A stretch of DNA of 64,000 nt from Ostreococcus lucimarinus (lineage: Eukaryota), in NCBI GenBank assembly GCA_000092065.1, contig CP000594.1. One strand, written 5' to 3'. The translations under genes were made by a program, and so were the position numbers. The first letter of the stretch is position 1. Each line of letters opens with the position of its first letter. The notes beneath the pieces were generated by a model. The model was not told where the DNA came from. It worked only from the letters and a program-made list of their open reading frames with translations, and ran no database searches. Below, piece after piece: positions 36,494 through 60,572 of the stretch.

Positions 36494-36520
36494 AAACTCG
36501 ATTTTTGCTAGGGTTTAGCG
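36494..36520 (+). promoter_or_regulatory. Conserved 27-nt 5' motif, third copy
   Basis: Exact AAACTCGATTTTTGCTAGGGTTTAGCG, 65 nt upstream of the ATG at 36586. Confidence 0.6.
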
Positions 36521-36585
36521 TCTCAGTGTCCCGACGGAGATACAGTGCGGGGATCCCGTCGGCAGCACTCTCCGTCGCGCACGCA

Positions 36586-39500
36586 ATGTCGAAGAAATCT
36601 GATCCACTGTATGTACCAGTCAACACGTGTGAAGACGACACAGTCGGTCTTCTTCGGACGATCGATGAAGTTCAAGTAGACGAGGGTGAAACCAACGTTA
36701 CTTCGCCCGAAGATAATAATTGTGACGGCGGCGTTCGAGTAGTAGACATGGTTGGGTTGATACGGAACGGGCTGCATGCGCGGAGGTGCGCGAGCAGACG
36801 ACGGTCCACCGCGATCATCCACGTTTTGTTAACTGTCGTTCTGGCAAGTTTTTTGCGTTCGACCTTGGCGTTTGAAAGGACAGATGGGTTTCAAGGCGAG
36901 CTTGAAGATACCGCACACGAAGGACCGGGAGCATCAAGGAGTTCGGTGGCGAACGAAACCGCGGCGCTGGGGTGTGCATGGGGGATACCTTGTCCGCCAG
37001 TGGCTCAGGCGGTGGTGGATGTCGTGTCAGATCCACATGGTGCTGCCGAAGATGCTGCGAACCTGGCTGGAGATGGACTCAATAGTGCTGTAGATGCAGC
37101 AGCGGCTGGGGCAACATTTTTGTACGATCAAGGGACGGCAGCCGCGAGCGCAGCAGCGGCAGCGGCGACAGAGTTGGCGTCGGCTGGATTTGAATTCGCC
37201 AAGGGTGCGGCCACAAGCGCATACGCGATGGGTTGCTCCGCGGCGGCGATGGCTTGGAACACGGCGACGGCGGTCTATGACCGTATGAGCGACCCAGAAA
37301 AATTTTTGTCAGACATGATTGACAGCTTTCCCACATCTTTGGGGGATTTGAAGTCGCTTTCGGGCAAGGCACTCGCAGTCGGTGGAGAAGCCTTCGTGGA
37401 GATGAATGCGAATAATCCCGTTGGACGCCAAGCGCTCGCTGCTGTCAAAAAGGCAAACGAAATCGGCGGCAAGTACGGTTTCGAGAACCTTCAGAAATTC
37501 ACCGCTGTGGGCGCGTCGTTGACGAATCGCGTTATCCCCGGCGGTGGCATAATTTTTGAAGCCGTGGACGTCGTCGGTGAAACGGCGCAAGATGCTGTGG
37601 ATACTGCGATTCTCATCGTGGAGTCTATGCTCAACGCTCTTGAGTGCAAAGTGTCGCCAGTCGATGTTATGGAGGTGATACAAAAAGTTGTCATCGAACA
37701 AATATCAAGCTGGAATGCGTTTGCGAAAATGTTCGAGGAGAAGAAGGGGACTGACTTCTTCTACAAACTCGATCATGTCATCTGCAATACTCTTTGGACA
37801 GTGGCTATGCCGCATGCGGACTTGATGGTGACGGCGATTGGCGTCCTCCTGGAAAAAGTCCAAGCCACTTGTCCAGGAGTTATCCCAGCGGATTCCAAAC
37901 CAGCAGCTACGCTGGGGTTGATTTTTGACGCGTCTGTAAAAGGGGGCTCAATGAAAGGTGTATCTGCTGAGGTTGGCATCGGTGCTGACATTGATGGGAA
38001 CAAATTTTGCTATTTCGGCTCCTGCGCTTACGCAGGTATATCGTTTGGTGGCTACGGTGCTGATGGGACGATGTTGGCGGGACTCAGTGTTTGGAAGTCT
38101 ATGGATTCAGTTCCGGGCACCTCGAGTACATTTGCGTTCGCGGCCGATATCACCATGCCATTACTCCCCTCGTTTGATCCCGGAGTCACGTTCGTTTCAA
38201 ACGACGCCGGGCTCATCGGCATCAGTGTCTCAAAAGAAATCCCCGGCGGCGACGAACCAAGTGGTGAATTTTCGGTCACGAAAGGGCGATGCGTAACGCC
38301 TGTTTGTGTCAAGACAGATGGTAATCCTTGTGGTGAGGGTCAGGCTGCTTGGTCCGACGTGGGCTCGCATGCGACTGCTGCAGTGGAGGCGATCAAGACG
38401 GATGAGTGCATAGTTGCTGGTGCCGGTGTGATTGAACAAAATGGTGGAATTTCCGTGAGTCGAGAAATCCGGTTACCGGCGTCTGGGGTGAACCTTCTTG
38501 CCGATGCTGAGGCAAACCCGACGGGAATGAAGAATTTTAAGCCCTCAAGCGTGAGGATTCCTGAGGGTAAATTCTTACTTGCGTTTACCGGTGGTGATGA
38601 AGCATTTAAGGGGAGCGAGACAGTGATTCGTAGCTATAAGTCAAAACTCAACAACCGTTTGTATTCAATGACGTCCTTTGTCGTTTCTGACATTGCAGCC
38701 GAGTTTCACGAAGAAGCGCCAAAATCAGTTGGCCCAGAACATGCTGGTTCAATCAGTAAATGTAAAGCGATGTGCGCGGTGAAGAAACACTGCTGCAATA
38801 CGGATGAATCCATCGGAAGTAACCAGTATCTAAGCTGCCTACAGGCATGCGTCGTCCGCGTGCGTGGAACCGACGAGCGGACATGTAACTCTTACTGTGC
38901 ATCTGCAACGACTTCTCGTCACATTAATGGTTACATGTACAACCTCGCAACATCTTGCGCTGATGTCGTTGCATCCGAAGGAAAGTTATGTTCTACTCGG
39001 TACGGTAGCGATCGTTCAACCTGCCTATACGGTTGTTCGATCGGACGCGACCCCGAACAATCGCTCGCAGTCGTCAAATCCACTGGATTCTATATGCAAC
39101 TTCCTGCGGCACATGTTACCCCCAGGTCGACGAATAATTTGCGCGATCGGACGTTGAGTAGTGTGATTGTTCGAGCCGGGTTTGTTGTTAAACTGTACGC
39201 CGGGCGCGACCTGAAAGGTCAATACCTGACGCTCGGGAGTTCGGCGACGCTGTATGGTAACCATGCGAGGTTCTATTCATCCTTACGCGGATCATTCCCG
39301 AACACGAAGTTTGCCTGGGCAAATTTCAATGACAGAACTCGGAGCATCGCCATCTTGGAGGCGCCTGTGACGCTTTATACGCAACCCAATTTCCATGGCG
39401 ATCATGAATCAAAACTTGAGCATGCATTTGACTACACCAGTCTCGGTCCGACAGTCGGGGACAGGCATGTTAATTCCATCTTTCTAAGAGAAGGATCTGT

Positions 39501-42500
39501 GGTTGAAGTATACGAGGGACGCAGTTTCAACGGTCGAGGCATGCAGTTCATATCCAGCGTATCAGATGTCCGCCGCGCAACTGAATCCATCGGTGACCTT
39601 TCTAGACCGACATGGCAAAGAGTTTATGGAACTGCAAGTATGGTTGACGCGGGTCGTGAAGAAGTATATAGTATTCACGCAGATGACGTCGCAAATACAA
39701 AGCCAGTTGATAATTCTGGTGACTGGTCGGACTTTTTGACACTGAAGTGGAGTCATATTTCTGTTGGGCCCACAGGCCATGTATGGGCGATTCGTAAACC
39801 TTACGGCAACGCTTATCACTGCATGCCACATCAAACCTCTTGCAAGACCAAATGGGAGTATACCAGGCTCACCCAGCTGGATGCTGGAAGTTTGTACGTT
39901 TGGGGGGTGACGTACTCGGGATACGTATACAGGCATCTCGTGAACACACACGAGGGTTCATGGACACGTGTAAATGCGCCAGATACGATGAAGCATATCT
40001 CAATAGGCCCAAGTGGCGATGTCTGGGCGGTATCGACGACGAATAAAGTATATTTCTGCGTGCATCCGTGTACTGGATCGTGGCGTGTCATCGGCGCATC
40101 CGCACCCGTAAAACGTCTCATATTTACTGTGAACAATGACAAATATATGGCTCGTGTCGATTTGAAGACTGACGGTAGTATTAATTTCAACGCTGGTCAT
40201 AAAGTAGCTGGCTGGTTGAGTCTAAGCGGAATCACGTACGCCACGAGCGGTCTCAACTATCTTTCCCTAAACTCGCGTTATTGGGAACATTATAGTGGCA
40301 TGAATGGCTACTGGTCGCCAGCCCAATACTCGTGCTCGAACGGCCTCGTTTCTGTGACTGGGCTCGTGAAGACAAAAAATCATGGCTGGGGGCAGGTCAT
40401 CGGTACTCTCCCGTCAGGGTGTCGTCCGACGAAAGCACTCATCTTCACCACGAATAACCACGATGAGCAGGCGCGAGTGAACGTATACGCCGACGGGACG
40501 ATCAAATGGGGTGCCGGCGGCAAGGGTCACGGATGGTTGAGCCTAAGTAACATTGTCTTTTCGACCAGTGGCAACGCGCTTTTACCTCTGAGCAATGGTT
40601 GGGCGCACTACAGTGGCACGAGTGGCTACTGGTCGCCTGCTGAGTACTCGTGCGCCGACGGCCTCGTGGTCTTGAGTGGATTAGTACGCGGTAGTAACTG
40701 GGGTTCTACTATCGGCACTCTTCCTCCGGGTTGTCGTCCGAAACAAGCTCTCATCTTCACCACGAACAACAGCGATAAGCAAGCGCGAGTGAACGTGTCA
40801 CCGGGGGGGGTGATCAAATGGTCACGTGGTGGCAAGGGCCACGGTTGGTTGAGCCTGAGCGGCATCGTATTTGCAATGACTGGGCTGCAGTTGATGCCTC
40901 TGAGCAACGGTTGGAAGTACTATAACGGCGCGAGAACGAGCGGGTATTGGGCACCCGCACAGGTCGCGTCTGTGCGCGGCCTCACCGTTGCTCAAGGCCT
41001 TATCAAAGGCGGTGGATGGGGTGGAACAATGGCAAAAATTACCGGTGGATGCGGATATATGAGTGATTTAATGTCCCTGACTAAGAAGAACGCGGGTCAA
41101 CATAGCACAGCACATAATGGCGTTGCAAGCCGCCCGTTGACGTCGACTCCAAATGGGCGCTGGGGGGGTGGCACGTGCACGCACACGAATCATGCGTCCG
41201 ACCCATGGTGGCGACTTGATATGGGGACGACGAGGACCTTGAGTTCGGTGGAGTTGTTGAATCGCAACGACTGCTGCAGTGACCGCTTTATCGGCCTCCG
41301 CGTCTACATCAGCAATCATAACTCCTACGTAAAGGATCATCCGAGTAACAAACAGTGCGGGCAGACGTTGGGATCGCCGAATACTGCCTGGAATATATTC
41401 GACTGCGGCGATGCCATCTCTGGGCGCTACGTATACGCCACCCTATATGGTAAAGCAGCACCGTTAACTATCTGCGGTGTCAGGATGTTCGAATCAAATA
41501 CGATGATAAAGCAGCTGGACGTTGGAAAGCGCTATGTTTACGGAACCAGTACGAATGGTCATCTTTTTAAAATCCGTGCCGATGGGGGCGAGGATAACTG
41601 GTCCCTCGTACATCGTTATAGCGAATTCGGCGGTATTGATGCCAATTATGTTTCAGTCTCACCGCATTCCGAACAATCGTCGTTCCTGTGGGTTACAAAC
41701 CAAGCGAACGAAATTTATCGCCAATCCATCGGAATACAAATCTCTTCCATGAGAGTCGCCTCGGCAATCGTAACTGCTTACAAAGGTGTGGGATTTACCG
41801 GTGATAGTCTGCCCCTGACTTCCGGTTTTTATAACTTTAAGACGCTCGAGGCAGACTCAGACGCCGGATTTAAGCTCACGAACCTCAGAGCGTTTGTGCG
41901 AAGCATCAAGTCTATAAGGATCCATCCAGACTACGAGGTTGAGCTGCGCGGTTATAATCAAGCACGAGCAGTCGTCACCTCTAGTACAATGGGAGTACAC
42001 GATTTTCATAAACTGGACACAGAGGGCAAGGAACACGAAGAGAATATAGTTGGAGCTACAAGATTTCCGCGACCGAGCGGTGTCTCACGCAAATCGACGT
42101 TTATGCCAATCGAAGCAACTACGCTAGGAACATGGATCCAAACACGAACTGCCAACGTTTACGTGATGTCAGATCTATCAGCCACCCCAAGTGCTCTCAT
42201 TAGGTACATTGCTGCGTACGGCGATGCAGAATATTGCAAAATGATCATGTTTCACGTGCGTCACGGCGATGAAGTCTCTGTTGTGCCTGAGGAGGCTGGA
42301 TATGCGACTTTTGGCATCAGAGATGCGTCTTCCGACAAGTGTCAGAATCGCGACGGTGTACTATCGCTCTGGCGTATAAAGCAAACTCCGAGATTGGCGC
42401 GCCGCGCGACAGATGCAGGCTACGGCATCGGAAAGTTGAAATTCTCGATTTTGGGAGGCTGGACGGGAGAAATAGCCTCAATGAAAGTGATGAGAAAACT

Positions 42501-42996
42501 CACTTATGTCCAAGGGTACTCCGGTGGCCGTCATCGTAATGAGGGAGGAAATCCAAAACGGACTCCACGAGAATGTCGGGACATCGCTAAAAGCAAGGGT
42601 TTACCTGCCTGGGGATTTCGAACCGGCCGTCATAATGATCCTAACTGGCGGTTTACGTGCTTCTTTTATGAGCACGGATTTGGGAGATTTGCGGGTAATG
42701 ATGACACAATGCATATGACAGGATGCGTCGATATATCCCGAAAGACCGCAAATGGCTGCGCACTGAGCGCATCAGCCAGCGCGCGGTTGGGTTCTGAAGA
42801 CTTAGAGACTTACCCTCGCGCGATGGCGAGACCAAAGGCGAGACTGCTAGAATCAGACTGGTACTATATCTCTGTCTGCTGTGTTCTCGTCAGCCTAGCG
42901 TCTGTGGTAGCGTTCGTCGCATTTCGACGCTCGCGAACGTCGGGCAAACGCATTCTACTTGAACGAGTCTCAACGAACTACGGTGCCACAATTTAA
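36586..42996 (+). CDS. Large membrane-anchored lectin-like protein, 2,136 aa (beta/gamma-crystallin-like, tectonin-like, three ~105-aa repeats, F-type (fucolectin-like) lectin domain, C-terminal TM)
   Basis: Uninterrupted ORF whose first ATG is MSKKSDPLY.
- The F-type-lectin-like signature is HTNHASDPWWRLDMG...VELLNRNDCCSDRF.
- Tectonin-like units include HISVGPTGHVWAI, YVWGVTYSGYVYRH and HISIGPSGDVWAV.
- Crystallin-like Greek-key patterns include VTLYTQPNFHG and VVEVYEGRSFNG.
- TM segments are AIIHVLLTVVLASFL and VCCVLVSLASVVAFVAF. Confidence 0.85.
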   Translation: MSKKSDPLYVPVNTCEDDTVGLLRTIDEVQVDEGETNVTSPEDNNCDGGVRVVDMVGLIRNGLHARRCASRRRSTAIIHVLLTVVLASFLRSTLAFERTDGFQGELEDTAHEGPGASRSSVANETAALGCAWGIPCPPVAQAVVDVVSDPHGAAEDAANLAGDGLNSAVDAAAAGATFLYDQGTAAASAAAAAATELASAGFEFAKGAATSAYAMGCSAAAMAWNTATAVYDRMSDPEKFLSDMIDSFPTSLGDLKSLSGKALAVGGEAFVEMNANNPVGRQALAAVKKANEIGGKYGFENLQKFTAVGASLTNRVIPGGGIIFEAVDVVGETAQDAVDTAILIVESMLNALECKVSPVDVMEVIQKVVIEQISSWNAFAKMFEEKKGTDFFYKLDHVICNTLWTVAMPHADLMVTAIGVLLEKVQATCPGVIPADSKPAATLGLIFDASVKGGSMKGVSAEVGIGADIDGNKFCYFGSCAYAGISFGGYGADGTMLAGLSVWKSMDSVPGTSSTFAFAADITMPLLPSFDPGVTFVSNDAGLIGISVSKEIPGGDEPSGEFSVTKGRCVTPVCVKTDGNPCGEGQAAWSDVGSHATAAVEAIKTDECIVAGAGVIEQNGGISVSREIRLPASGVNLLADAEANPTGMKNFKPSSVRIPEGKFLLAFTGGDEAFKGSETVIRSYKSKLNNRLYSMTSFVVSDIAAEFHEEAPKSVGPEHAGSISKCKAMCAVKKHCCNTDESIGSNQYLSCLQACVVRVRGTDERTCNSYCASATTSRHINGYMYNLATSCADVVASEGKLCSTRYGSDRSTCLYGCSIGRDPEQSLAVVKSTGFYMQLPAAHVTPRSTNNLRDRTLSSVIVRAGFVVKLYAGRDLKGQYLTLGSSATLYGNHARFYSSLRGSFPNTKFAWANFNDRTRSIAILEAPVTLYTQPNFHGDHESKLEHAFDYTSLGPTVGDRHVNSIFLREGSVVEVYEGRSFNGRGMQFISSVSDVRRATESIGDLSRPTWQRVYGTASMVDAGREEVYSIHADDVANTKPVDNSGDWSDFLTLKWSHISVGPTGHVWAIRKPYGNAYHCMPHQTSCKTKWEYTRLTQLDAGSLYVWGVTYSGYVYRHLVNTHEGSWTRVNAPDTMKHISIGPSGDVWAVSTTNKVYFCVHPCTGSWRVIGASAPVKRLIFTVNNDKYMARVDLKTDGSINFNAGHKVAGWLSLSGITYATSGLNYLSLNSRYWEHYSGMNGYWSPAQYSCSNGLVSVTGLVKTKNHGWGQVIGTLPSGCRPTKALIFTTNNHDEQARVNVYADGTIKWGAGGKGHGWLSLSNIVFSTSGNALLPLSNGWAHYSGTSGYWSPAEYSCADGLVVLSGLVRGSNWGSTIGTLPPGCRPKQALIFTTNNSDKQARVNVSPGGVIKWSRGGKGHGWLSLSGIVFAMTGLQLMPLSNGWKYYNGARTSGYWAPAQVASVRGLTVAQGLIKGGGWGGTMAKITGGCGYMSDLMSLTKKNAGQHSTAHNGVASRPLTSTPNGRWGGGTCTHTNHASDPWWRLDMGTTRTLSSVELLNRNDCCSDRFIGLRVYISNHNSYVKDHPSNKQCGQTLGSPNTAWNIFDCGDAISGRYVYATLYGKAAPLTICGVRMFESNTMIKQLDVGKRYVYGTSTNGHLFKIRADGGEDNWSLVHRYSEFGGIDANYVSVSPHSEQSSFLWVTNQANEIYRQSIGIQISSMRVASAIVTAYKGVGFTGDSLPLTSGFYNFKTLEADSDAGFKLTNLRAFVRSIKSIRIHPDYEVELRGYNQARAVVTSSTMGVHDFHKLDTEGKEHEENIVGATRFPRPSGVSRKSTFMPIEATTLGTWIQTRTANVYVMSDLSATPSALIRYIAAYGDAEYCKMIMFHVRHGDEVSVVPEEAGYATFGIRDASSDKCQNRDGVLSLWRIKQTPRLARRATDAGYGIGKLKFSILGGWTGEIASMKVMRKLTYVQGYSGGRHRNEGGNPKRTPRECRDIAKSKGLPAWGFRTGRHNDPNWRFTCFFYEHGFGRFAGNDDTMHMTGCVDISRKTANGCALSASASARLGSEDLETYPRAMARPKARLLESDWYYISVCCVLVSLASVVAFVAFRRSRTSGKRILLERVSTNYGATI

Positions 42997-43110
42997 ACAA
43001 ATCATTTCAAACCATCCTATTATTGGCATTGTGGTAAGTACAATCGACCTCACGGAAAAGGCAGGCGGTACTGGCGTCGAAGAGTCGCGTGAGATTTCGC
43101 TTAAGATTTC

Positions 43111-43158
43111 GGCACCCTCGCTTAAGATCTCTTCAGAATCGAATCTCTGAACGCAAGG
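43111..43158. repeat. 48-bp 3'-flank module, second copy
   Basis: GGCACCCTCGCTTAAGATCTCTTCAGAATCGAATCTCTGAACGCAAGG, matching 14712-14759. Confidence 0.5.
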
Positions 43159-43578
43159 CGTGGATGTACATTAAACCATGAACGAGGCGGGACACGGTTC
43201 GATTTTTGGATTACAAGTGTAGGTCTACTTTTACGTTTCGTGGACTCCGCTCGAGTCGGCCGATGTCACCATGTCAGGTGTTTCGAGTGCACTAGAGACG
43301 TGACCGCCGATACACAGGACGTCGAGCTCGGCGTGCCTGATTTCACGACTCGGCGACCATGGTTTGAAACCGAAATGACCATCGGCTTCAGGCCCAGGCG
43401 CGGCCGCAATGCTACTTTAAACTTAATTTTTTTTTTTTGAAAAAAGAGTAGTAAGAGTAATAAAAATAAACTTTTTTTTTGTTTGAGTTGGGGCCCCCCC
43501 AACATGATAAAACCGCACATCGACGTTGATGTACCACATGTAAGATTTCTCCGGGAACCAATCGTGTGAGTGAAGTGG

Positions 43579-44075
43579 TCAAACCAAGCCACGCAACTCA
43601 TCGACCGTAAATTGATACTTGTCGAGACTGCGCTTCGAAGGCAGCGTGCCGCGCGCTCGAGCATTCTTGAGGCACGTCTTACGCAGTATCTTTTCGCGTG
43701 CTGCTTGTAATAATTGAGTTGTCTGTAGTTACCATCGCCGCCGTCCCGCTTCGGCGTATATTGAGCTCTGCTGTAGGCCGGACTCTCGTCCACGTTCTCG
43801 TGGCACGCCTGCTTCTGGCTGCGTCCAGTAGCTCGGGAGTTGAATAAGCCGTCACGCTTCTCTCTCATGTAGGCACTTTTACGTTGATGGAGCTCTCCAG
43901 CTGGAATGTCCTTTTCGAGAACTCTCACGTCCGCGTCGCCAAACGTGAAGATTGGATGCCGTGCGTATTTATGCGAGGCAAGGCGCGCTCTGATCGAACC
44001 TGTCGTCGATCCGATGTACGTTTTGTCACATTTCGCATTATCGCTATACATTTCGTACACGCATCCCGACGGCAT
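43579..44075 (-). pseudogene. GIY-YIG nuclease gene with a 1-bp deletion (frameshift after codon 129)
   Basis: 497 nt against 498 nt in copy A. GCAGTATCTTTTCG (~43689) replaces GCAGTATTCTTTTCG. The 269-aa track ORF (43266-44075) is read-through into the AT-rich terminal region. Confidence 0.8.
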
Positions 44076-44244
44076 TTGTCCTGGTTACCTATCTATCCCT
44101 AAGAAAATATTGTTGCCTCCTCCTGCGGTTTGCAGTCACATTCGAGAGACCATAGGTACTCGTGTCGCTGCGTGGGGTGCAAGGTCCGGGATGTAGATAT
44201 CGAACCGCCCGATTTCACACCTGGACGTTCGTGATCCGTCGAGA

Positions 44245-44435
44245 CCTGACGAAATGACGAACTTGTTTTGTCGTCCCGAAATTCGTCAGCCCGTCGTTCG
44301 GTCACACTTTGTGTGTACCAATGATGAAAATGACGAAATGTTAAAATATTTTAATGTTTATTTTTATTTTAGATCTATGACAAGCAACAGTGTAGACCTT
44401 TATGAAAACAGTTCGTCATTCGTCATTTCGTCAGG
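44245..44435. other. Iteron / inverted-repeat / AT-rich block, copy B
   Basis: Same block as 15927-16117. Confidence 0.4.
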
Positions 44436-44500
44436 ATCCAAACCATGGTCTTTTTGGTGTCTTGTTGAGTCTTCATATTGCAAATGTACGAATTACAAAA

Positions 44501-46711
44501 TTAGTATGAGCACCAGACGACCGCCGGCGCGAGCTCCGTCTCCCCCGTGTACCCATTGTTCTTCAGCCACTCGAAGCACCCGTCGCGGTCAATTTCCCAA
44601 TAAACGCCCTTCTCGTCCCTACCTTGCCTCAGGTGGTCCTCTTGCATTGGGACCCTGTGGCCCTTTTCCTTCTTGAAGAAGTCCTTGAGCTTATTACCGA
44701 CCTTCGTCGCGCTATCTTGACCGCGCGCAGCCGCTGGCAACCACGTCTGGTATTCGATGAAGATGTCACTGTTGCGGATTTTATTTCCAACCCACTTCTC
44801 AGGGAATTCAACAGTGACGCAATGCTCAAACCATCGAGTGAACTTGGGCATGCATCCACGCTTCATTTCCGAATACGCATCGGTCGTAGGTCTGTCTTTG
44901 ACGTAGTCAAAGGTCGATAGGTCGAGCCCCATGAGATGGTCGTAGATTGCCCTCAAGTTCCTCGGATCCCTGATGTAAACCTCGCGGAATTCCTTCAAGA
45001 ATCCAGTCTGGTCGTTCAAGTGCGTGAGCAGTGGCTCCATGACGACGAACCGACGATCACTCATTTCCAGAAAGACCGGGTAGTCGTCGTTCGAGAAAAA
45101 TAGGAACCCAACCAGATTCATGATGACGTACAGCTGCACGTGCTTCGGGTTGATTGTGAAACTCGTGTCCGTGAGCATCGACTTCAGCAACTTTCTATAC
45201 ATTTTCATGATGCACTCATCTGCTTCGTTCAACGCGAGGCACTTTTTGCCTTCAATCATGTTCGCATGCGTCCCAAATATGTCCTTTTTCGGATCAGCCG
45301 TCTCGTGAAACGTCTTGCCCATGAGCGCGTGAAGCAGGTGCAGGAAAGTGCCCTTGCCGGTACCTTGGACTCCTCGAAACACGAGCGACGTGATCGGCTT
45401 CTCTTCGGGTCTCTGGAAGAGACACGCGAACCAATTCGAAGCGTACTCGAGCGCATTTTCTGAACCGCCACATAGCACCAGGAGGAGCTCGAGGAAAGGC
45501 TTCACGTCGCCCTCTTTGCCCAGTTCACTGGGGATGCCTTCGACCGGGTAGCCTCGCCACAGATTGTACGTCTTGTTGCTGCAGTTTTTCGGGACGACGT
45601 CGAGGTTATCGTACACCCGTTTATTGTCGTCGTCGAGCCACTTTTCGATGAACCCGTTTTTCTTGCCTTTCCTCAAGACACCGTTCTCATCGACAAAGGA
45701 GAGCTCTCGATAGCGCCTCACCAAAGCGGCCTCGCTGTACTTGGTAATGTCCCCGGTGGTTCCATAACAGCTATCGTCGCAGAAGAGGTCCTTGGTTAAG
45801 ATCTTTGCGACGTGCTTCTCGAACTCACGGCGGACCTCGATGTAGCCCGCAGACGTGCCCTCTTTGATTTCGTTCTGCTCCTTTTCGGTGATACCGGTCA
45901 CCAAACACCCAACCTCAAAGCGAAACTGTCTGGGCTTGCAGTTGCCATGGTTTTTCACGGTGAGCACGCCGAGACCGACCTCGGCGACGTAAAAGTGATT
46001 CCCACCGCCCCTTCCATTGCCTTCGTGGAAGCCCCCACAGCAAGGACATTGGCCCACAGTGGTGCCTCGCTGTGGGCGACATTGGTCGCATTCAAAATCA
46101 TACGATGTCGCTCCACTGAGCCAATGTATGCCCGTGAACCCCATTTCCTCGAGCAAAGGTGTCACAGATGCTTGCGTAAAGCTGCACTCCGTGTCCGCGC
46201 GTTCGACCTTGTGACCGACTTTGCCATCAAGGAAACTGTACAAATCGTTGGGCATCGGTGGTAAATTGTTGATGTCGCCTCGGAGTAGCTCGTAGCCCGG
46301 GGCATCGGCACCGACCACGTAGTTACCCGTCGTACGGATATCGACGAACCCTTCGATGCCCACCGTGCCTTTCCAATCGCCGAATCGTTCTTCGTCCCAT
46401 GCGAAGTACGTGTGGTACCCGCCTGATCGCGTTTTGACGATATACGCGCCTTCCCCGCCGACCTTGCGCGTCAACATTTCTTCCGTGAGTTCAAACTCGC
46501 ACTTGCCACCGTAACAATCCCAGTCGATGACGAGGACACGGTTCGGTCGCCCTGTCAGCACGCCGTACATTTCTCCTGGGATGACTTTCTGCGTATTCCG
46601 TTCATAGTTTGCTTCATCGAGGAACCCCCTGCCGCATGTTGGCTCCTTGTCCTGGTCGAGTGGGATCAGATGCATGCCGTTCGTAAATTCTCTGGCGTCC
46701 ATATATATCAC
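44501..46711 (-). CDS. PrimPol (AEP primase) / Zn-ribbon / D5-like SF3 helicase fusion protein, 736 aa (copy B)
   Basis: Intact ATG ORF with all motifs as in 16183-18393 and 13 aa substitutions relative to copy A. Confidence 0.9.
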   Translation of the reverse strand: MIYMDAREFTNGMHLIPLDQDKEPTCGRGFLDEANYERNTQKVIPGEMYGVLTGRPNRVLVIDWDCYGGKCEFELTEEMLTRKVGGEGAYIVKTRSGGYHTYFAWDEERFGDWKGTVGIEGFVDIRTTGNYVVGADAPGYELLRGDINNLPPMPNDLYSFLDGKVGHKVERADTECSFTQASVTPLLEEMGFTGIHWLSGATSYDFECDQCRPQRGTTVGQCPCCGGFHEGNGRGGGNHFYVAEVGLGVLTVKNHGNCKPRQFRFEVGCLVTGITEKEQNEIKEGTSAGYIEVRREFEKHVAKILTKDLFCDDSCYGTTGDITKYSEAALVRRYRELSFVDENGVLRKGKKNGFIEKWLDDDNKRVYDNLDVVPKNCSNKTYNLWRGYPVEGIPSELGKEGDVKPFLELLLVLCGGSENALEYASNWFACLFQRPEEKPITSLVFRGVQGTGKGTFLHLLHALMGKTFHETADPKKDIFGTHANMIEGKKCLALNEADECIMKMYRKLLKSMLTDTSFTINPKHVQLYVIMNLVGFLFFSNDDYPVFLEMSDRRFVVMEPLLTHLNDQTGFLKEFREVYIRDPRNLRAIYDHLMGLDLSTFDYVKDRPTTDAYSEMKRGCMPKFTRWFEHCVTVEFPEKWVGNKIRNSDIFIEYQTWLPAAARGQDSATKVGNKLKDFFKKEKGHRVPMQEDHLRQGRDEKGVYWEIDRDGCFEWLKNNGYTGETELAPAVVWCSY

Positions 46712-47181
46712 ATAAGAAAAGAATTCTTTAAGCCGTGTTTTTCCTGGTCACATCGGCGCGATGACTGATTTTCAAGTTTTTCAACAGCCTGGAAAAGCAC
46801 GCCAGCACGCCCCACTGGTCAACATTTTGCCACTTTTTCGACGAGATCGGGGTACTGCAAAGCACACGGCGAAGACGGGTGGCCGATGATCCATGTGTCC
46901 GTGTCTTCTCTGATGATTCGCTCCCGTTCATGGCTCAAGTGGTCGCGCGACCTCGCGCGTGAACGAAGGTGCCAAATTTTAGGTACCAGAGGTGCCCATT
47001 TCTTCGTGGTGAGATGGTCCCTCGTGTACCACGCCGCTCCCCTTTAAGTATGAAAAGTTATGTCCAATATATTGCGCGCGATGTCCGATGGTACACCATA
47101 CAATTTCATAGTTAAGCCACACTTATTATATGACGACAGTGCCTACCTGTCGGTGGTCACGGAAAAGTTGCGTCTCAGACT

Positions 47182-47320
47182 GAGGATGGCGTGGCTCATG
47201 CGAGCTATATATACCTCATATATACATATATTAACACTTATAACACTATTAATGTACAATTGATTGGATGAGGTGCTCAGTCCACCCGCGCGAGGTCAAC
47301 AGCAGCAATTGTCTATGCAC
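47182..47320. repeat. Module R3, copy a (about 139 bp; includes the last codons and 3' flank of the metallothionein-like gene)
   Basis: GAGGATGGCGTGGCTCATGCGAGCTATATAT...TTGATTGGATGAGGTGCTCAGTCCACCCGCGCGAGGTCAACAGCAGCAATTGTCT recurs as a direct repeat at 48869-49007. Confidence 0.8.
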
Positions 47321-47643
47321 TTGGAGCATGAGTTTTTGCACTCGCACGACGGACACGCGCAGGAGGTGCATCCGCACGACTTACACGTGGTCGCATCGGG
47401 ACACGCGCATTTGTCGGGGCCACAAGCATCACAGTCTTTCGGGCAGCACGCCTTGTCCGTGGACTCAGATTGTACCGTCCGTGCTGCAACCCGCGTCGGG
47501 CGCGAGACGACGCGCACGGCGCGTGGCGCGGTTCTTGACAATACGAAATCTGGTATCTGCGTACTCTTTACCTTAACGGCGGAGACTTTGAGCATTGTTG
47601 CGTCGAGGAATGGGCCAAGGGTAAGTAACCTCGTGGTCGGCAC
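47296..47643 (-). CDS. Metallothionein-like Cys-rich protein with an N-terminal extension (115 aa, or 99 aa from M17)
   Basis: The C-terminal 52 aa contain 18 Cys in CxC/CxxC/CC arrangements (KACCPKDCDACGPDKCACPDATTCKSCGCTSCACPSCECKNSCSKCIDNCCC). The N-terminal 45-60 aa are S/T/R/V/A-rich, like a transit peptide. Confidence 0.6.
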   Translation of the reverse strand: MPTTRLLTLGPFLDATMLKVSAVKVKSTQIPDFVLSRTAPRAVRVVSRPTRVAARTVQSESTDKACCPKDCDACGPDKCACPDATTCKSCGCTSCACPSCECKNSCSKCIDNCCC

Positions 47644-47810
47644 GTGCCCGCCTTATACAATCGACGCCTGAAAAGGGAGACTGGATGAGATCGAGGGCAC
47701 CCCGTGAGCGATCACTCTTCGACGCGGAACTCGTTCCTGTAGACGGCCAGCCACCACTCGAACGACCATACGGCAGCACAAAAGTACATCCACAACGTGT
47801 ACGTATCGAA

Positions 47811-48542
47811 ATGGCTGCCTATACTCAAGCGACGTTAACAGCACCTTCGTCGTCGACAGCCGTAAGCAATTCGAAGATAAGACTACGCCGTTCACGAACA
47901 ACTACGCGCACACATTCTGATCCGTCCGAAAGTACGCCGTTGAGTGAAGAGGCGCAAATCATAGTTGATGCATCGGAGGCGTACCCAGCGCAGACAAGCG
48001 TGGATTATTCGTTCGCAAGGAGTGGGTTCAGTAACCAGTGTGAACGAGCACTCAACGAGCAAATCAATGTCGAGTACAATATTTCGTACGTCTATCACGC
48101 CATGTGGGCGTACTTCAATCGTGACAATATCGCATTGGCTGGCTTTGCTGAACACTTTCGAAAAGAGTCACTGGAGGAGCGTGCGCATGCGGAACAACTC
48201 ATGGAGTACATGAACTTACGAGGCGGCAAAGTTGAGCTCCAACAATTGTTACCACCACAGAGTGAATACGATCGCCCGGAGAAAGGATGCGCACTATTAG
48301 CCCTGGAGCTGAGTTTGAGTCTCGAAAAGTTGAATAAAGAGAAACTGTGTGAACTGCATCGCGTCGCTGAGGATGCAGGAGACGCACATATGTGCGATTT
48401 TATTGAAGGCGAGTTATTAGACTCGCAGGTTCAAAGTGTGCGACAGGTTAGCGAGATGGTCGCCACGCTATTACGCATGGGACCGCCAGCAGATGGTATG
48501 GCAACTTGGCACTTCGATCAAACCTTACTTGAGGTGGCATAG
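47811..48542 (+). CDS. Ferritin with an N-terminal targeting-like extension (243 aa)
   Basis: Ferritin-like four-helix signature: NEQINVEYNISYVYHAMWAYF...FRKESLEERAHAEQLMEYMNLRGG...ALELSLSLEKL...DAHMCDFIEGELLDSQV. The first ATG in the 285-aa track ORF is at 47811. Confidence 0.85.
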   Translation: MAAYTQATLTAPSSSTAVSNSKIRLRRSRTTTRTHSDPSESTPLSEEAQIIVDASEAYPAQTSVDYSFARSGFSNQCERALNEQINVEYNISYVYHAMWAYFNRDNIALAGFAEHFRKESLEERAHAEQLMEYMNLRGGKVELQQLLPPQSEYDRPEKGCALLALELSLSLEKLNKEKLCELHRVAEDAGDAHMCDFIEGELLDSQVQSVRQVSEMVATLLRMGPPADGMATWHFDQTLLEVA

Positions 48543-48651
48543 AAGCGGATTGTATCTCGTTGAGTCTAGTCACTTTCGTGTGCTCGTTTCGTTGGTTTCT
48601 GGTTACGAGTTCTTCCGTTGTTCTAAATATAACATATATTTAGACATATCC

Positions 48652-48779
48652 AAACCCTAGTACAATCACCCTAGGGTTTAGTCAAACTTTAATCAGTTTT
48701 ATCTAAATTAATTTTCATCTGTCGTCGCGAAAGATGAATCCTCGCGACAGAAAAACAGGTCTAAACCTTAAACCCTAAC
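48652..48779. repeat. Cluster of telomere-like AAACCCTA motifs in a convergent intergenic region
   Basis: AAACCCTAG at 48652, palindromic CCCTAGGGTTTA at 48669, and CTAAACCTTAAACCCTAAC at 48761-48779. Confidence 0.55.
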
Positions 48780-48790
48780 TTCGGTTGGGC

Positions 48791-48870
48791 TATATAGCAC
48801 TTTGGGCGGTTAAAACCGCGCCCAAAGCCCCATATATTGTCCCATGTTTCGGCCAAATCCCGCGCTTTGA
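48791..48870 (+). repeat. Intergenic module R2, copy b
   Basis: TATATAGCACTTTGGGCGGTTAAAACCGCGCCCAAAG...AATCCCGCGCTTTGA. Homologous to 36151-36230, with the hairpin retained through different stem bases. Confidence 0.6.
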
Positions 48871-49007
48871 GGATGGCGTGGCTCATGCGACCTATATATG
48901 CCTCATGCGTACATATATTAACATTTATAAGGGTATTAATACATAATTGATTGGATGGGGTGCTCAGTCCACCCGCGCGAGGTCAACAGCAGCAATTGTC
49001 TTTGCAC
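48869..49007. repeat. Module R3, copy b (retains only ...CKDNCCC-stop of a metallothionein-like 3' end)
   Basis: Direct repeat of 47182-47320. It lies in the 3' flank of the minus-strand gene 49178-50968. Confidence 0.8.
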
Positions 49008-49177
49008 TGATCAGTCCGTGTTTGACAAGGAGACGTTCGCGCGAAAGTGAGTGGAGTGAGATAAGCAAAATTGGGATTTTTTGTTATTTAAAATGACTTC
49101 TTTTATATCGACGATCTTGTCTCGATTATACGCTGACCTTCGCGGGTGCTTGTTGTACTTGTACGTACACGACCCAG

Positions 49178-50968
49178 CTAGTCCGCTTTGTTGTGGATCT
49201 TGTCGCACTTGTCGAAAGCGTATGCGGCGACGGTACTGCTGACCCCGGACGGATCAAAGACTGATGCGAGCTCAGCTGCCGCGCGGACCGCATCCGTCTC
49301 TGATTCCGCGCTGTTTACGTTTTTCATCGCAGAAAAATAGCCGGTAGTCTTACCAACCGCCTCCATACCTTGGTCGAGACTATTTGCCGCCTTTTTCAAA
49401 GCAGCAAGCTTACTCCCAGCTTCGGCAACGTTAGCACCGGCACGGGCTGCAGCCTTGGCCCCAGTTGTCGCAGCTCCACTACTCCCAGCGGTCGCTACAA
49501 ATGCAATAATTTCCAACGGCCCGAGAATCATATTAGTTACCGCGGAGCCACAAGCGGCGTCATCTTTTGCGGCACCCATACCGCAGTTCACCCACTTCTC
49601 ACCGCTCACTGTTGGAGGTTGGCCCCAGCAAACTGGACCGACGCCATTGTAACCACTGCGACATTTCTTGTAACACAAACCAGCGTCGTACTCCAAACCA
49701 GGAGGACACGTGGCTGCTTCAAAGCCGTGTGAGCAGTATATCTTTTTCGGGCAACTCGGCGCAATTCCATGTGCGTACCCATTGCCGGTGCAAGAAACGC
49801 CGCACAAGTTGCAGCCAATCCGGTTCGGATGACTGCTAGGGCAAGGAGGATAACAAAGTCCAAGACAGTCTTGTCTTCCTTTTCTGCTACAGTGCCTTCC
49901 GCCGCATACGAGTCTTGTCCTCGCGTTCCCCAAAAGGCGTCGACCGTTGGCCGCATGTTCGCCAAGGGTGGATGATGATGATGACCAGTACTCCCAGCCA
50001 CACTGGACGGTACCAACACCACGACCGCGGTTACCTCTGTTACAAAAAAGACCATGATCATTCCAGCCCGAGCCGCAGCGTTGATGGCAGTCGTAGCCAA
50101 ATCTGGCATAATTACCGAGGTGGTGGCATTTGGTATAGCACAAGACGCCCCCTGCAATTGTTTCTTTATTGGAAGGGCAATGAGACGGGACTTTGCCCAC
50201 ATCGCGGCCGTATGAGTTTTTCCAACAGAACTCGACGGTGATGGCGTTCGCAACGACAGCACCCTTCGCATTCGACGCAGCACTTACACCATCACTAAAG
50301 CTGTCCCATTTTCCGCCCAACCGAGCAGATAGCATCGCTTCGTGTACCTCCAATAATGCCTTGTCTTGCTCAATCTCTTCGTGCAGTTTTTGCATATATG
50401 CTGAGACGTTCACTGGCGCCGGTTGCGTCGCACCCTCATCCACCGTGGCCTGCCAAACGAAGTTCGAATGCTCATCATTAGCAAGATTTTCATCGTCACG
50501 CCTGCGCAAATGTTGTTTAAGCATCTTAATTCGTAATAGCGTCGCGTTTCTTCCGCCCTTGGTCGATATGAACATGCCATCCTCGGCTCCTGCCGCATTC
50601 AACCTGGGTTCGGCACCTGGGATCACCTCCCCAGGACCCGCACTCCCGAGCAACGCGTGGACTTCTGGACCGAATTCCATCTCGTCAACGAATTCGTCCA
50701 AGTGATCAGGGAGATCAAATTCACCCTGGATCGAGTGCGCGGACAATCCCAGCAACGCAGACGGCCCTTTCGGTGCACTTTCACGGTACGAGAACGAAAT
50801 CACACCCACAGCAAACAGCACAGCGGCCTGCTTCACGGTACACCAGCCGCATGCCGCCGCTTTTCGCCCTTCACGTTCCTCCGTTTGTTGCCAACTGCGA
50901 GCGCCGTCGTTCGACGAGCCGGGCGCGCCGTATGTCTCACTAATCGCCGCCGCTTCGTACGTCGGCAT
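49178..50968 (-). CDS. Cys-rich membrane protein of unknown function, 596 aa
   Basis: ATG ORF with an N-terminal TM segment (AAVLFAVGVISFSY), a repetitive Cys pattern (..CP.G....G.LCY.KC..GY.GVGPVCW..) and an Ala/Gly-rich C-terminal part. Confidence 0.65.
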   Translation of the reverse strand: MPTYEAAAISETYGAPGSSNDGARSWQQTEEREGRKAAACGWCTVKQAAVLFAVGVISFSYRESAPKGPSALLGLSAHSIQGEFDLPDHLDEFVDEMEFGPEVHALLGSAGPGEVIPGAEPRLNAAGAEDGMFISTKGGRNATLLRIKMLKQHLRRRDDENLANDEHSNFVWQATVDEGATQPAPVNVSAYMQKLHEEIEQDKALLEVHEAMLSARLGGKWDSFSDGVSAASNAKGAVVANAITVEFCWKNSYGRDVGKVPSHCPSNKETIAGGVLCYTKCHHLGNYARFGYDCHQRCGSGWNDHGLFCNRGNRGRGVGTVQCGWEYWSSSSSTLGEHAANGRRLLGNARTRLVCGGRHCSRKGRQDCLGLCYPPCPSSHPNRIGCNLCGVSCTGNGYAHGIAPSCPKKIYCSHGFEAATCPPGLEYDAGLCYKKCRSGYNGVGPVCWGQPPTVSGEKWVNCGMGAAKDDAACGSAVTNMILGPLEIIAFVATAGSSGAATTGAKAAARAGANVAEAGSKLAALKKAANSLDQGMEAVGKTTGYFSAMKNVNSAESETDAVRAAAELASVFDPSGVSSTVAAYAFDKCDKIHNKAD

Positions 50969-51130
50969 AGTTTGTTCCTTTAGTCGAGCGTCGGATTGTG
51001 GCGAAACGGCGGGTGCCCTCGGTCGGTCGGACGGACTTTCGCGGTCGGTCGGACGAGGGGCCCGTTGGCGCCCCGCGGGTGTGTGTACCAGCCCTTAGGG
51101 TTTAATGTATATTAATGTATTTATGGGTAT

Positions 51131-51177
51131 CATCCCGCGCAATTCGAGGGGTAGATTACTGTACTGTACAGTAACCC
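51131..51177 (+). repeat. Partial R1-type module (right part only) at the compositional boundary
   Basis: CATCCCGCGCAATTCGAGGGGTAGATTACTGTACTGTACAGTAACCC, preceded by CTTAGGGTTTA at about 51093. Confidence 0.5.
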
Positions 51178-51222
51178 TCTAGTAGAACACGCTAGGTGAA
51201 ATCAAGCGCCGCGACCGTACGC

Positions 51223-51304
51223 TTATTCTCGTCGGCGTTTGCCGCTGCCGCTGCTACTGCTACTGCTACTGCTACTGCTCGAGGACGAGCTCGAAGACGA
51301 ACTT

Positions 51305-51342
<38 letters not shown>

Positions 51343-51912
51343 CCACGTCGATTCATCCTCGTCTTCATCCTCTCTTAATTCATCCGCAAACTCGCGCGAA
51401 CTGCGCACCAAAGCCTCTTCAAACTGCCGCTGCGCCTCGCTCCGCGCGCCTTCGAATCGAAACACCAACCGCGGCGTGTGTTTCATCGTCAACATCTTCG
51501 ACAGCATCGTCCGTATTTTCTGCGCGTTCCGCTCCAACGCGTTCCCCGCGATGTGTTCCTCCCCCATCCGCGTCGTTCCGTACAGCACGTGCACCGTCTT
51601 AAAATCTTTCGACACGCGCGCGTCCATCACGTTCGCCCCCGTGCCGTCAAACTTGTGCGCCAGCTCCTCGTGCACCACGCGCTTCAGCGCTTTGCGCACG
51701 CGCGCGCTCTGTCGAATCTGCGCCTTGTCCTGATCGATCGTCGTCCGCTCCACCTCGATCGGGCGTCGCGCCGCGCGCGGGCGCCGCGTCGTCGTCCCCG
51801 CGAAGTGCGCGCCGCTCGCCGCGCTCGCCGCGCCGCGCTCGCGCGCGCCCGCGCGCGCCGACGACGCCGTCGCGGTCAGGCGCATCAGCGCTCGCGTCGC
51901 GCGTCGACGCAT
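51223..51912 (-). CDS. RBFA: Ribosome-binding factor A (RbfA)-like protein with organelle-targeting-like N-terminus and poly-D/poly-S tail (229 aa)
   Basis: RVRKALKRVVHEELAHKF...VMDARVSKDFKTVHVLYG...KIRTMLSKMLTMKHTPRLVFRFEG fits the RbfA pattern. Of the 399-aa track ORF, only the part from the ATG at 51912 is plausible. Confidence 0.7.
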
Positions 51913-52008
51913 CGTCGCGTCCCGCGTCGCGTCGCGTCGCGTCCCGAGCGCCGCGATGTCCCGAGCGCCAATCGCCGCCGCGCCGCTCGGCGCCGCGCGC
52001 GGGACGCG

Positions 52009-52887
52009 ATGCCACCGCCGACGCGCGCGACGCCCGCGCGCGGCGCGCCCGACGTCGCCCGCGAGTGGGCGGCCGCGGGCGTCGGGTGCGCGCTCGCGGA
52101 CACGGTGTTCAACCCGCTCGAGGTGCTCAAGGTTCGCGCGCAACAACGACCGGACGCGGTCGCGCTGCGAGCGCTCGCGCGCGAGGCGATCGCGCGCGAT
52201 GGATTCGCGCGGGGCTTGCTCGCGCCGGGACTCGCGGCGACGTGGATGCGAGGGCTGTCGTACACGGGGTTTCGAATCGGGCTGTACCCGACGACGCGGG
52301 ACGAGGCGCTGCGCGTCTTCGGCGGCGACGGCGTCGGCGCGCGAGTGCTCGCGGGGGCGGTCACGGGCGGGATAGGCGCGGTGGTGTTTAATCCGATCGA
52401 CGTCGTGCGAGTGCGGATGCAATCGAGCGAGTGCGGGTATCGAAGCACGGTGGGGGCGTTCGCGGAGGTGGCGAGAGAGGAAGGCGTGAGACGCGGATTG
52501 TGGCGAGGCGCGGGGGCGTGCGTGGCGCGCGCGATGACGCTGTCGGGGTCGCAGTTAGCGACGTATGATGTCAGTAAACGATGGTTGTTGAAAAATGGGA
52601 CGTTTAGCGAGGACGCGCCGCCGTTGCACTTTACGTGCTCGTTCGCGAGCGGCGTCGTCGCGCAAACCGTCACGCAACCCGTGGACACGCTCAAGACGCT
52701 CGTCATGTCCAACGTCGGCGACAAGCGAGGCGCGATGACCATCGCGCGCGATGTCATCGCCAATCACGGCGTTCGCGGGTTATACAGGGGCTACTTTGCC
52801 GCAGCCGCGCGACAAGGTCCAGTCATGACGCTCCAAATGCCCATAGTAGAGGCGCTCAGAAGATTTTTGGGCCTCGAATACTTTTGA
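52009..52887 (+). CDS. Mitochondrial carrier family (SLC25) protein, 292 aa
   Basis: Three carrier signatures of the PxD/ExxK/R type: NPLEVLKVRAQ, NPIDVVRVRMQ and QPVDTLKTLVM. The start is the ATG at 52009, 96 bp from the divergent RbfA start. Confidence 0.85.
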   Translation: MPPPTRATPARGAPDVAREWAAAGVGCALADTVFNPLEVLKVRAQQRPDAVALRALAREAIARDGFARGLLAPGLAATWMRGLSYTGFRIGLYPTTRDEALRVFGGDGVGARVLAGAVTGGIGAVVFNPIDVVRVRMQSSECGYRSTVGAFAEVAREEGVRRGLWRGAGACVARAMTLSGSQLATYDVSKRWLLKNGTFSEDAPPLHFTCSFASGVVAQTVTQPVDTLKTLVMSNVGDKRGAMTIARDVIANHGVRGLYRGYFAAAARQGPVMTLQMPIVEALRRFLGLEYF

Positions 52888-53034
52888 ACTTTCGAGCGCG
52901 CGAGATTCGACGCTCGCAGCGATTCGTTGTATTTATCATCTATTCTTTCAGCGCGCTCGAAGCCTTCCCTCGCGCGTCGCGGTGCCAGAGCGCGGCCAAC
53001 CTCGTCCGTACCTCACACCTCGACGCGCCGAAGC

Positions 53035-53808
53035 ATGCGCGCCGCGACGTCGCCGCGGGTTCGCGCCGCCCTACGGCCGTCGACGCGTCTTTCGCGCGTG
53101 CGCACATCGCGCGCGACTCACACGCGCGCGGAGCCGTCGAAAAGCGAGGAAAAGGCGTCGAAAGACGCGCAAGATGAAGATGACGCGTTCGCGATTGATT
53201 TATCCGTCGACGTCGAAAAGGAGTTCAAACGCGGCCTGGAGTTCGGGAACACTGAAGTGCGCGCGCGCTTCCGCCCAGAGGCGATCTCTGAAGTCGACCG
53301 CGGGTTGCCGATCGCGGATTCGCTCGTCGCGGTGTCCGCGCAGGTGCTCGTGGCGGTGGCGGCGCTCAGCGCGGGAAACATTCCGTCGTGGTTGGCGCCG
53401 ATTGGACCGAGGTGGCGTGGATTAGCGTATTTGTTGCCCGCAATCGTGCATGGGGCGAAATTAGCGAGCGTGTGGGTCGTGGGGGGGCTGGCGGGGAAGG
53501 CGTACGAGCGGAAGGCGTTCGATGGGACGTTTCGGGAGGCTATGCGACGAACGGTGAGCGGCGGATGTTTCGCCGTGGGGCTGCTGATATTTATCACGCA
53601 GATTGAAGTGGCGCATAAGTTTCACGAGTTAGGGTTGGGAGATCCCGTGCTTGAATCGTCGCCCGAGGGTGATTTAGTGATAAATGGAGCACTGTCTGAG
53701 CTTTTGGTTGACATCTTCAGCGAAGCCGGCGCGTTGCTGACGTGGCGAGCGATTAGGTGGAACACGTCGCCGACTGATCCGGCATCATTGCTGGAGGAGG
53801 AAGAGTAG
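53035..53808 (+). CDS. Hypothetical organelle-targeted membrane protein, 257 aa
   Basis: The ORF from the first ATG has an R/S/T/A-rich N-terminus followed by 3-4 hydrophobic helices. No recognisable family. Confidence 0.55.
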   Translation: MRAATSPRVRAALRPSTRLSRVRTSRATHTRAEPSKSEEKASKDAQDEDDAFAIDLSVDVEKEFKRGLEFGNTEVRARFRPEAISEVDRGLPIADSLVAVSAQVLVAVAALSAGNIPSWLAPIGPRWRGLAYLLPAIVHGAKLASVWVVGGLAGKAYERKAFDGTFREAMRRTVSGGCFAVGLLIFITQIEVAHKFHELGLGDPVLESSPEGDLVINGALSELLVDIFSEAGALLTWRAIRWNTSPTDPASLLEEEE

Positions 53809-53887
53809 CGATTAATTGTTGTGATTCGATTCTTGTATTATATTATTTTCAACTTTCAATTCGTGTGTGTGTATTTGAGCGCACGCG

Positions 53888-60535: not shown

Positions 60536-60572
<37 letters not shown>

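Follow-up and report, generated by a model that had tools for sequence, protein, structure and literature searches.

The DNA analysed here is a stretch of 64,000 nucleotides (the window). Exact protein matches assign it to a 708,927-bp chromosome in the nuclear genome of Ostreococcus lucimarinus CCE9901. Among free-living eukaryotes Ostreococcus is the smallest; it serves as a model for the coexistence of alga and virus, and its mobile DNA is poorly described. The locus at about 43093–47180 of the window, termed copy B, is on balance best regarded as an endogenous replicon module of viral derivation, of which this organism has several copies, with a nuclease gene inserted separately. The core of the module would be formed by a self-loading initiator, in which an archaeo-eukaryotic primase (AEP) of the primase-polymerase (prim-pol) kind is joined to a D5-like superfamily 3 (SF3) helicase, followed by a presumed origin downstream and then by a small open reading frame (ORF) on the opposite strand. 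An I-TevI-like two-part GIY-YIG gene would have entered as a cassette at the 3′ end of this small ORF. The copies in the window, of about 4 kb, may be solo replication modules or remnants of larger virus-like elements. They would have been seeded from a lineage whose helicase was under purifying selection, and would now be undergoing truncation, rearrangement and frameshifting; B has kept both its helicase and its origin-like region intact.

A blastn search of B against the window returned copy A (15148–18558, minus strand; 97.0% identity over 3427 bp) and two further partial copies, C and D, which the finding of the preliminary description had left unused. Four pieces of the element are thus present inside 47 kb. 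Copy A comprises a helicase gene (16183–18393), an origin-like region (15927–16117) and an intact nuclease gene (15262–15759, annotated as XP_001421473 or XP_001421474). Copy C (4335–5657, minus strand) retains an intact nuclease gene (4584–5081), the origin-like region and ~47 codons from the end of the helicase gene. Copy D (1667–3095, plus strand; XP_001421292) is an inverted fragment in which the upstream region is followed by helicase codons 1–340, open but cut off. The constant offset of 28,318 bp that had been reported between A and B was reproduced across the helicase genes (16183–18393 in A, 44501–46711 in B), and becomes 28,317 and then 28,316 in the nuclease part. B also extends past A as described, by 72 bp at the nuclease end (43389 versus the equivalent of 43461) and by 240 bp upstream (47116 versus 46876). 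The flanks of the four copies are unrelated except for short dispersed modules.

The initiator gene of B (44501–46711, minus strand; ATG at 46702) encodes a protein of 733 aa with a probable AEP prim-pol part, a Zn-binding region and a D5-like SF3 helicase. The helicase is a member of the D5-like SF3 group: Pfam DUF5906 (PF19263) matches it at E 2.2e-14, with 54.5 bits against a cutoff of 27.6, and the motifs are complete. Invariant in the family alignment are the AEP motifs (DxD, D60/D62; sGGxH, S93–G95/H97; D121), the Zn cluster (C205/C219/C222/H226) and the SF3 residues of Walker A and B, motif C and the Arg finger (Walker A G447/G449/K450, E493, N538, R550/R551). The ORFs of A and B both run for 733 codons from the ATG and differ by 41 nt and 13 aa, in agreement with the claim that the gene is full length. 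None of the 13 substitutions (residues 18, 35, 322, 366, 422, 574, 578, 580, 659, 667, 684, 687 and 698) lies at an invariant column, so they fall outside the motifs as had been stated. PF09250 is recorded on relatives, mostly as a weak match, and was not matched by the window helicase itself at E<=0.01. In the PDB, the NrS-1 primase was matched by sequence (E 5.7e-12). With an AlphaFold (AF2) model (pLDDT 72), the top Foldseek match was the helicase region (CTR) of the NrS-1 prim-pol (E 1.5e-14); MPXV E5 / vaccinia D5, PriRep1 and PriRep5 of the SaPI elements and ASFV PrimPol were also matched. When aligned by fold over the full length, poxvirus E5/D5 and ASFV PrimPol match the primase part as well, but at high rmsd. 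A scan of IMG/VR with the helicase gave no relative, and exact look-ups of both helicases and of the nuclease of A in a contig index recorded nothing.

SaPI Rep structures are among the best fold matches of the window helicase. In the Rep/PriRep proteins of SaPI in Staphylococcus (PDB 7pds, 7ola) a primase is likewise fused or linked to an SF3-type helicase, and where they have a winged-helix domain the model predicts a helix/beta-hairpin region at the C-terminus of the window helicase. The two share no sequence family beyond the D5-like helicase.

Downstream of the helicase gene, starting 66 bp past its stop, lies an origin-like region of 190 bp (44245–44435, minus strand). It has seven TGACGAA iterons: three form a tandem array on one side, and inverted copies occupy the centre and the opposite side. 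A, B and C each have seven of them in 190 bp, against an expectation of ~0.025. An AT-rich palindrome is present at 44336–44359 in B, and a perfect 17-bp inverted repeat has its arms 157 nt apart. The region is conserved in A, B and C, and at 73–79% nucleotide identity in three diverged subfamilies; it is 79% identical even in a subfamily whose helicase is only 57% identical. In the inverted-repeat arms, 98% of the cells are paired and four pairs carry double changes, and the covariation score was reached in 0/500 shuffles. Clustered repeats in both orientations, an AT-rich stretch, a position next to the rep gene and conservation with that gene, by which an iteron origin is recognised, are all found here. 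Origins of SaPI consist of iterons directly downstream of rep, in opposite orientations and split around an AT-rich centre (PMC9371898). With 6–12 short iterons placed in this way downstream of the gene, they have the same layout as the window region (PMC9371898). SaPI are bacterial phage satellites, unlike this eukaryotic nuclear element, for which origin function is argued from analogy. By that analogy, 44245–44435 is a putative cognate origin of the neighbouring helicase.

The GIY-YIG gene lies in a cassette of 810 bp (~43379–44188, minus strand) composed of its own upstream region, a 165-codon ORF, a hairpin, the 66-bp unit and a GCGGCCGC tail. The 66-bp unit, which lies at the distal end of the cassette, is a tandem duplicate in C (4356–4488), single in B and absent from A. 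On either side of the cassette stands a diverged copy of the last ~16 codons of the small ORF (44189–44244 and ~43310–43365). L008 and others have the 810-bp insert, with the target sequence duplicated around it, as B does. The small ORF itself is a degenerate remnant in B (43126–43378, plus strand), and encodes an intact hydrophobic, Cys-rich protein of 65–67 aa in the subfamilies of L010, L011 and L014 (L numbers denote related loci on metagenome contigs). At L001 and L011 (82% identical helicase) and at L014 (57%) the cassette is absent, and the equivalent of 44247 is joined straight to the homologue of 43378–43261; copy C ends exactly at the distal border of the cassette. The subfamily with an 84% identical helicase (L003, L010) also has no cassette at this site, and carries upstream of the helicase a GIY-YIG ORF of 30% identity (30 bits in Pfam) and an HNH_3 ORF. 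At L005, a nuclease of 51% identity stands beside a helicase of only 33%. Thus some relatives have the cassette and others lack it at the homologous site, as is the case with free-standing homing-endonuclease genes, and the helicase and nuclease do not form one co-evolving pair: the cassette is missing from the 82% and 57% subfamilies, and another GIY-YIG gene with an HNH gene lies elsewhere in the 84% subfamily. Judged from this distribution, the nuclease would be a separate, free-standing cassette of the homing-endonuclease kind, with homing as its presumed mode of spread.

The invariant residues of the nuclease family are Y7, Y20-I-G22, R31, H35 and N79. The model of an intact copy gave the I-TevI catalytic domain as best Foldseek match (probability 1.00, TM 0.57 on the target), followed by the GIY-YIG domain of UvrC; a disordered linker (81–115) and a helical C-terminal domain are predicted. 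A PDB sequence-profile search with the nuclease family gave no match, and a fold search was required. PF01541 is recorded on relatives of 48–63% identity, and UniProt names A4S7L2, A4S7L6 and A4S7M1 GIY-YIG proteins. By its motifs and predicted fold, the nuclease is a member of the GIY-YIG superfamily (PF01541). As in I-TevI and the Seg proteins of T4-like phages, an N-terminal GIY-YIG domain is joined by a flexible, fast-evolving linker to a separate C-terminal domain, and the gene is a discrete cassette present or absent between related genomes. Unlike in I-TevI, the host is a eukaryote, and no similarity to the DNA-binding domain of I-TevI could be detected in the C-terminal domain.

Relatives are carried by 29 metagenome loci, which place the unit in other contexts with independent flanks. 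Close relatives of the helicase form a 90% cluster of 601 sequences and those of the nuclease form clusters of 898, 122 and 43, most of them on contigs of 1–4.5 kb. An exhaustive profile search returned 37,372 relatives at E<=1e-3, with only ~12 clusters at 50% identity colinear over the full length. On Ostreococcus-type contigs (L001:6068–8721 and 12687–16411; L011:2688–6165) the helicase lies amid other virus-like genes, namely two recombinase-like genes, an RNase-H/terminase-nuclease-like gene, and genes for proteins of 374 aa and 319–450 aa. Homologues of these neighbours flank helicases of 30–35% identity on virus-like contigs of 16–21 kb (L005, L006, L036 and L037), and L036 also carries a fibre-assembly chaperone. 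Since the neighbours of the sister copies recur beside distant helicases on such contigs, the window copies are read as solo modules.

Polinton-like viruses, and the copies of them that have become endogenous, typically carry AEP-S3H replicases, tyrosine recombinases and free-standing GIY-YIG/HNH genes, and 1–2 polinton-like capsid genes are reported for Ostreococcus genomes (PMC12220804, PMC10120064). Polinton-like viruses and virophages insert into the genomes of protists and multiply there (PMC12220804, PMC10120064, PMC3671162), and the window helicase appears to share the domain architecture of their AEP-S3H replicases. Unlike polinton-like viruses of 14–40 kb, the window copies are of ~4 kb and are without capsid, ATPase and integrase genes and terminal inverted repeats; further virus-like genes are found only beside the sister copies at L001 and L011. 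From this set of genes we infer a viral (polinton-like) source. The view of the preliminary description, that this is a selfish multi-copy element and not a host gene pair, is borne out by the four pieces in 47 kb and the independent flanks in metagenomes. It is backed further by the virus-like contigs of the relatives and by a label in the literature: in 2008 a prim-pol/D5-like helicase protein of O. lucimarinus was cited in one sentence, as a protein only, as part of a selfish element (PMC2579912). That protein almost certainly belongs to the same gene family as the window helicase. A description of the element itself, covering its structure, origin-like region, nuclease cassette, copies or selection, was not found in the literature.

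The limits 43389–47116 given for a full-length copy are too narrow, as other loci share sequence from ~43093 to ~47180, past both ends. L008 matches B without a break over 47292–43093 with both ends inside the contig, and L007, L015/L026 and L021 likewise run beyond 47116. The upstream region of B (46712–47180, minus strand) includes 47117–47180, which is common to L007, L008, L015 and L021. The upstream end of the element was set near 47180 because the adjoining 47181–47321, with a metallothionein-like ORF farther out, is a host-type 3′-UTR module that is also found at 48868–49008. At the other end, a distal terminal module (43093–43170) recurs at the ends of L008 and L013 and in the flank of A (14708–14759), and stands solo in L019 and L024. 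The nuclease-end junction of A is common to L013 and L023, and the extra 72 bp of B are the variable 66-bp unit and a tail, seen also in C (twice), L009 and L016. Since the junction and the 66-bp unit recur in other copies, the ends of A and B are not random truncation points. The proposed difference in truncation points between loci therefore holds in part: truncations do differ between strains, but the junctions are partly recurrent.

The metallothionein-like Cys-rich ORF lies directly upstream of B (47296–47643, minus strand), and a fragment of its 3′ end, together with the UTR, is what is repeated at 48868–49008. Versions of 52 aa with their own promoter lie upstream of other copies (L007:~165–330, L015:8424–8592).

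Selection on the helicase was followed by the ratio of nonsynonymous to synonymous substitution rates (dN/dS), for which a value of about 1 had been named as a sign of neutral decay. The values obtained were 0.08–0.17 among close copies and 0.18–0.25 against diverged subfamilies. Between A and B there are 13.5 nonsynonymous and 27.5 synonymous differences (binomial p = 1.3e-9 against neutrality), and changes unique to single copies number 44 synonymous and 21 nonsynonymous. The ratio is thus ~0.1 and not ~1, but this does not discriminate, as the dead fragment D gives an equally low 0.11–0.17. Because D shows the same low ratio, most of the divergence arose under selection before insertion or breakage. 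Low dN/dS is usually seen among copies drawn from an active lineage, and does not show that A, B or the other genomic copies are themselves functional. For the nuclease, dN/dS was 0.2–0.75.

The element was also said to be recently proliferating, which is too strong. The copies differ by 3–5% (dS ~0.06), versus 0.2–1% for orthologous stretches of metagenome contigs compared with the window, and therefore the spread is not very recent. The loci are still structurally polymorphic in natural populations when metagenome contigs are compared with the reference. The helicase of C is longer in other strains, being complete in L009 (L009:1321–6510) and no shorter than 297 codons in L016; the helicase of A is replaced upstream of window position 16575 in L023 (L023:6926–8730); and the D locus differs to the left of 2670 in L024/L025 (10000–13265).

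Several observations weigh against an endogenous virus-derived module. Neither terminal inverted repeats nor target-site duplications mark the junctions of B, C, D and L008, and none of the short contigs is circular or has terminal repeats. No capsid, penton, packaging ATPase or integrase gene was found in the window by tblastn of all ORFs of the related loci. The genes of L001, L005, L006, L011 and L036 gave only weak integrase and terminase-nuclease matches in Pfam, PHROG and PDB profiles, and the recombinase-like call (L001, L005, L036, L037) derives from one weak PHROG match (E 3e-4) and a motif pattern, with a negative PDB profile. The window nuclease has no Pfam GIY-YIG match at E<=1. 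The iteron covariation comes from essentially two independent lineages. Finally, full-length helicase ORFs are intact in 6/6 examined and the helicase GC3 of 0.69 is like that of normal host genes, both of which fit maintenance at the level of the host too.

These last points, with dN/dS of ~0.1, would be expected of a domesticated host helicase family, possibly with a Y′-like role at chromosome ends and spread by recombination between them. The location of the copies in a low-GC, repeat-rich region of 51 kb is also in line with such a family. In the 84% subfamily, true (TTTAGGG)n arrays lie 530–600 bp beyond the helicase stop, at the ends of three contigs (L003:3891–3951, L010:4191–4265, L022:1195–1234); the gene is transcribed toward the telomere, and the GIY-YIG (30%) and HNH_3 ORF is on the centromere side. 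The yeast Y′ and fungal telomere-linked helicases are likewise multi-copy helicase families, and one subfamily here adjoins the telomere and is transcribed toward it. Unlike Y′, the present family is SF3 with a primase, thus of another superfamily, its telomere adjacency is seen in one subfamily, and the window copies are internal. No telomere array is present within the window, and L019 runs 7.9 kb past its start. The copies are truncated and polymorphic between strains, dN/dS is as low in a dead fragment, and the gene is accompanied by an iteron origin-like region and by homing-endonuclease genes, with relatives in virus-like gene clusters. A domesticated host family is therefore an unlikely explanation.

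In the nuclease gene of B as assembled one T is missing, as had been described: a TT pair is reduced at 43689, so that GCAGTATTCTTTTCGCG in A (15366) and C (4688) is replaced by GCAGTATCTTTTCGCG, which is found only in B (43683–43698). The read-through ORF was also recovered. The frame shifts at codon 129 of 165, yielding an ORF of 269 aa (43266–44075, minus strand; XP_001421478) of which 43582–44075 is the homologue of the 165-aa gene. The deletion is in no other copy that spans the site (A, C and six to seven metagenome copies). The catalytic part is indeed untouched, but the damage had been understated, as conservation is highest in the C-terminal 60 codons, which are lost. The linker evolves fast between copies, and codons 106–165 are almost invariant, with nine residues invariant throughout the family. 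Because the frameshift removes this conserved C-terminal helical domain, presumed to bind DNA, the nuclease of B as assembled is most likely inactive. The label of a decaying nuclease applies to B and independently to L013, an A-type copy (L013:1811–2302) with its own 1-bp deletion at nuclease nucleotide 31, but most copies keep the ORF. The frameshift of B would be ordinary decay and not a new kind of system.

If a host region had simply been duplicated as a segment, and the T were absent only through an error of assembly, nothing would be decaying. The lack of any further change in the 37 codons that follow the shift would agree with this, since it is to be expected both of an error and of a very recent event. 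There is, moreover, no second contig of the B allele over 43689; L028, which is 100% identical to B, reaches only 46395. The missing base is, however, in a run of only two, the frameshift of L013 is independent, and many truncated nuclease variants are present in public protein clusters. The flanks of A–D, unrelated save for short dispersed modules, and the occurrence of the unit in other metagenome contexts also speak against a duplicated region, and this explanation has very little probability. An autonomous two-gene transposon bounded at 43389 and 47116, with the GIY-YIG protein cutting the target site and the primase-helicase responsible for replication or insertion of the unit, likewise has very little probability. 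In its favour, the two genes are neighbours with a common orientation in A, B and C, and GIY-YIG proteins act as integration nucleases in Penelope-like retroelements. But some subfamilies have an intact helicase and origin-like region without the nuclease, the divergences of the two genes are discordant, the nuclease gene comes with an upstream region of its own inside a cassette whose border is defined, and the proposed ends, which lack terminal inverted repeats and target-site duplications, are overrun in L007, L008, L015 and L021. Profile searches of the window proteins for a cut-and-paste transposon or Helitron gave no transposase or HUH Rep domain.

Some further features were seen near the copies. 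Foreign ORF X is present in two pieces, 3095–3345 at the internal breakpoint of D and 15017–15147 at the distal junction of A, where copy A adjoins it. The pieces have a weak HTH_Tnp_Tc3_2 match, overlap by 37 bp (3095–3131 / 15111–15147) and, joined, would rebuild a gene; no simple insertion or inversion model fits the overlap at A and D. A lone relic of the small hydrophobic ORF of the element (LSLFCITIVGLLLTFGGLALHAIL) at 20167–20235 (plus strand) suggests a former copy that is otherwise deleted. L028 is otherwise identical to window ~46395–51155, but L028:1–116 corresponds to 20040–20155; the junction is at a dispersed module, and represents either a recombinant haplotype or an assembly chimera. 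Protein P0018, in the cluster of the D-fragment product, is a helicase-cluster member of 423 aa on a 104-Mb ENA contig, which may be Ostreococcus contamination of another assembly.

The GC content of the window is ~0.51 over 1–51000 and steps to ~0.60 in 51000–64000. The low-GC first ~51 kb contain all copies of the element and many short dispersed intergenic modules, together with three giant repeat proteins: one of 2240 aa with DUF285 (5875–12597), one of 5156 aa with tandem repeats of 114 bp and 162 bp (20438–35908) and one of 2163 aa (36505–42996). Ordinary housekeeping genes start beyond 51 kb. A recurrent intergenic module of promoter type, consisting of the telo-box-like AAACCCTA, then CACACACCCGCGGGGCGCCAAC and GTCCGACCGACCG, mimics interstitial telomere repeats; it is found at window positions 5857, 19754, 19834, 36509, 48766 and ~51078, and at L007:16–60 and L015:8270–8330. 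Matches to CCCTAAACCCTA near L007, L015 and L021 and in the window were considered as telomere and rejected, being part of this module. The window start was likewise rejected as a physical chromosome end, as L019 reaches 7.9 kb farther. Rfam and tRNA scans of the window gave no match, and a sigma-70 promoter/terminator scan, a model not relevant to a eukaryote, was not above shuffles.

The protein had already been flagged in the literature and the kinds of component are known; the limits of the element, its composition of replicon and cassette, and the meaning of its dN/dS differ from those of the preliminary description. The locus would thus represent a compact replication module of virus type in a eukaryotic chromosome, with an initiator helicase and a covarying iteron region, copies that derive from a selected, active lineage, and a homing-endonuclease gene that appears to move among them. 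It is predicted that the helicase binds the iterons, that the module replicates episomally and that it is induced on prasinovirus infection. There is a small chance that the ~4-kb unit is a still-functional minimal nuclear replicon, present as a chromosomal copy family of which some members cap chromosome ends. It could then be re-activated, for example in prasinovirus infection, be amplified episomally and have a satellite or defence role, and the homing endonuclease would spread among its copies.

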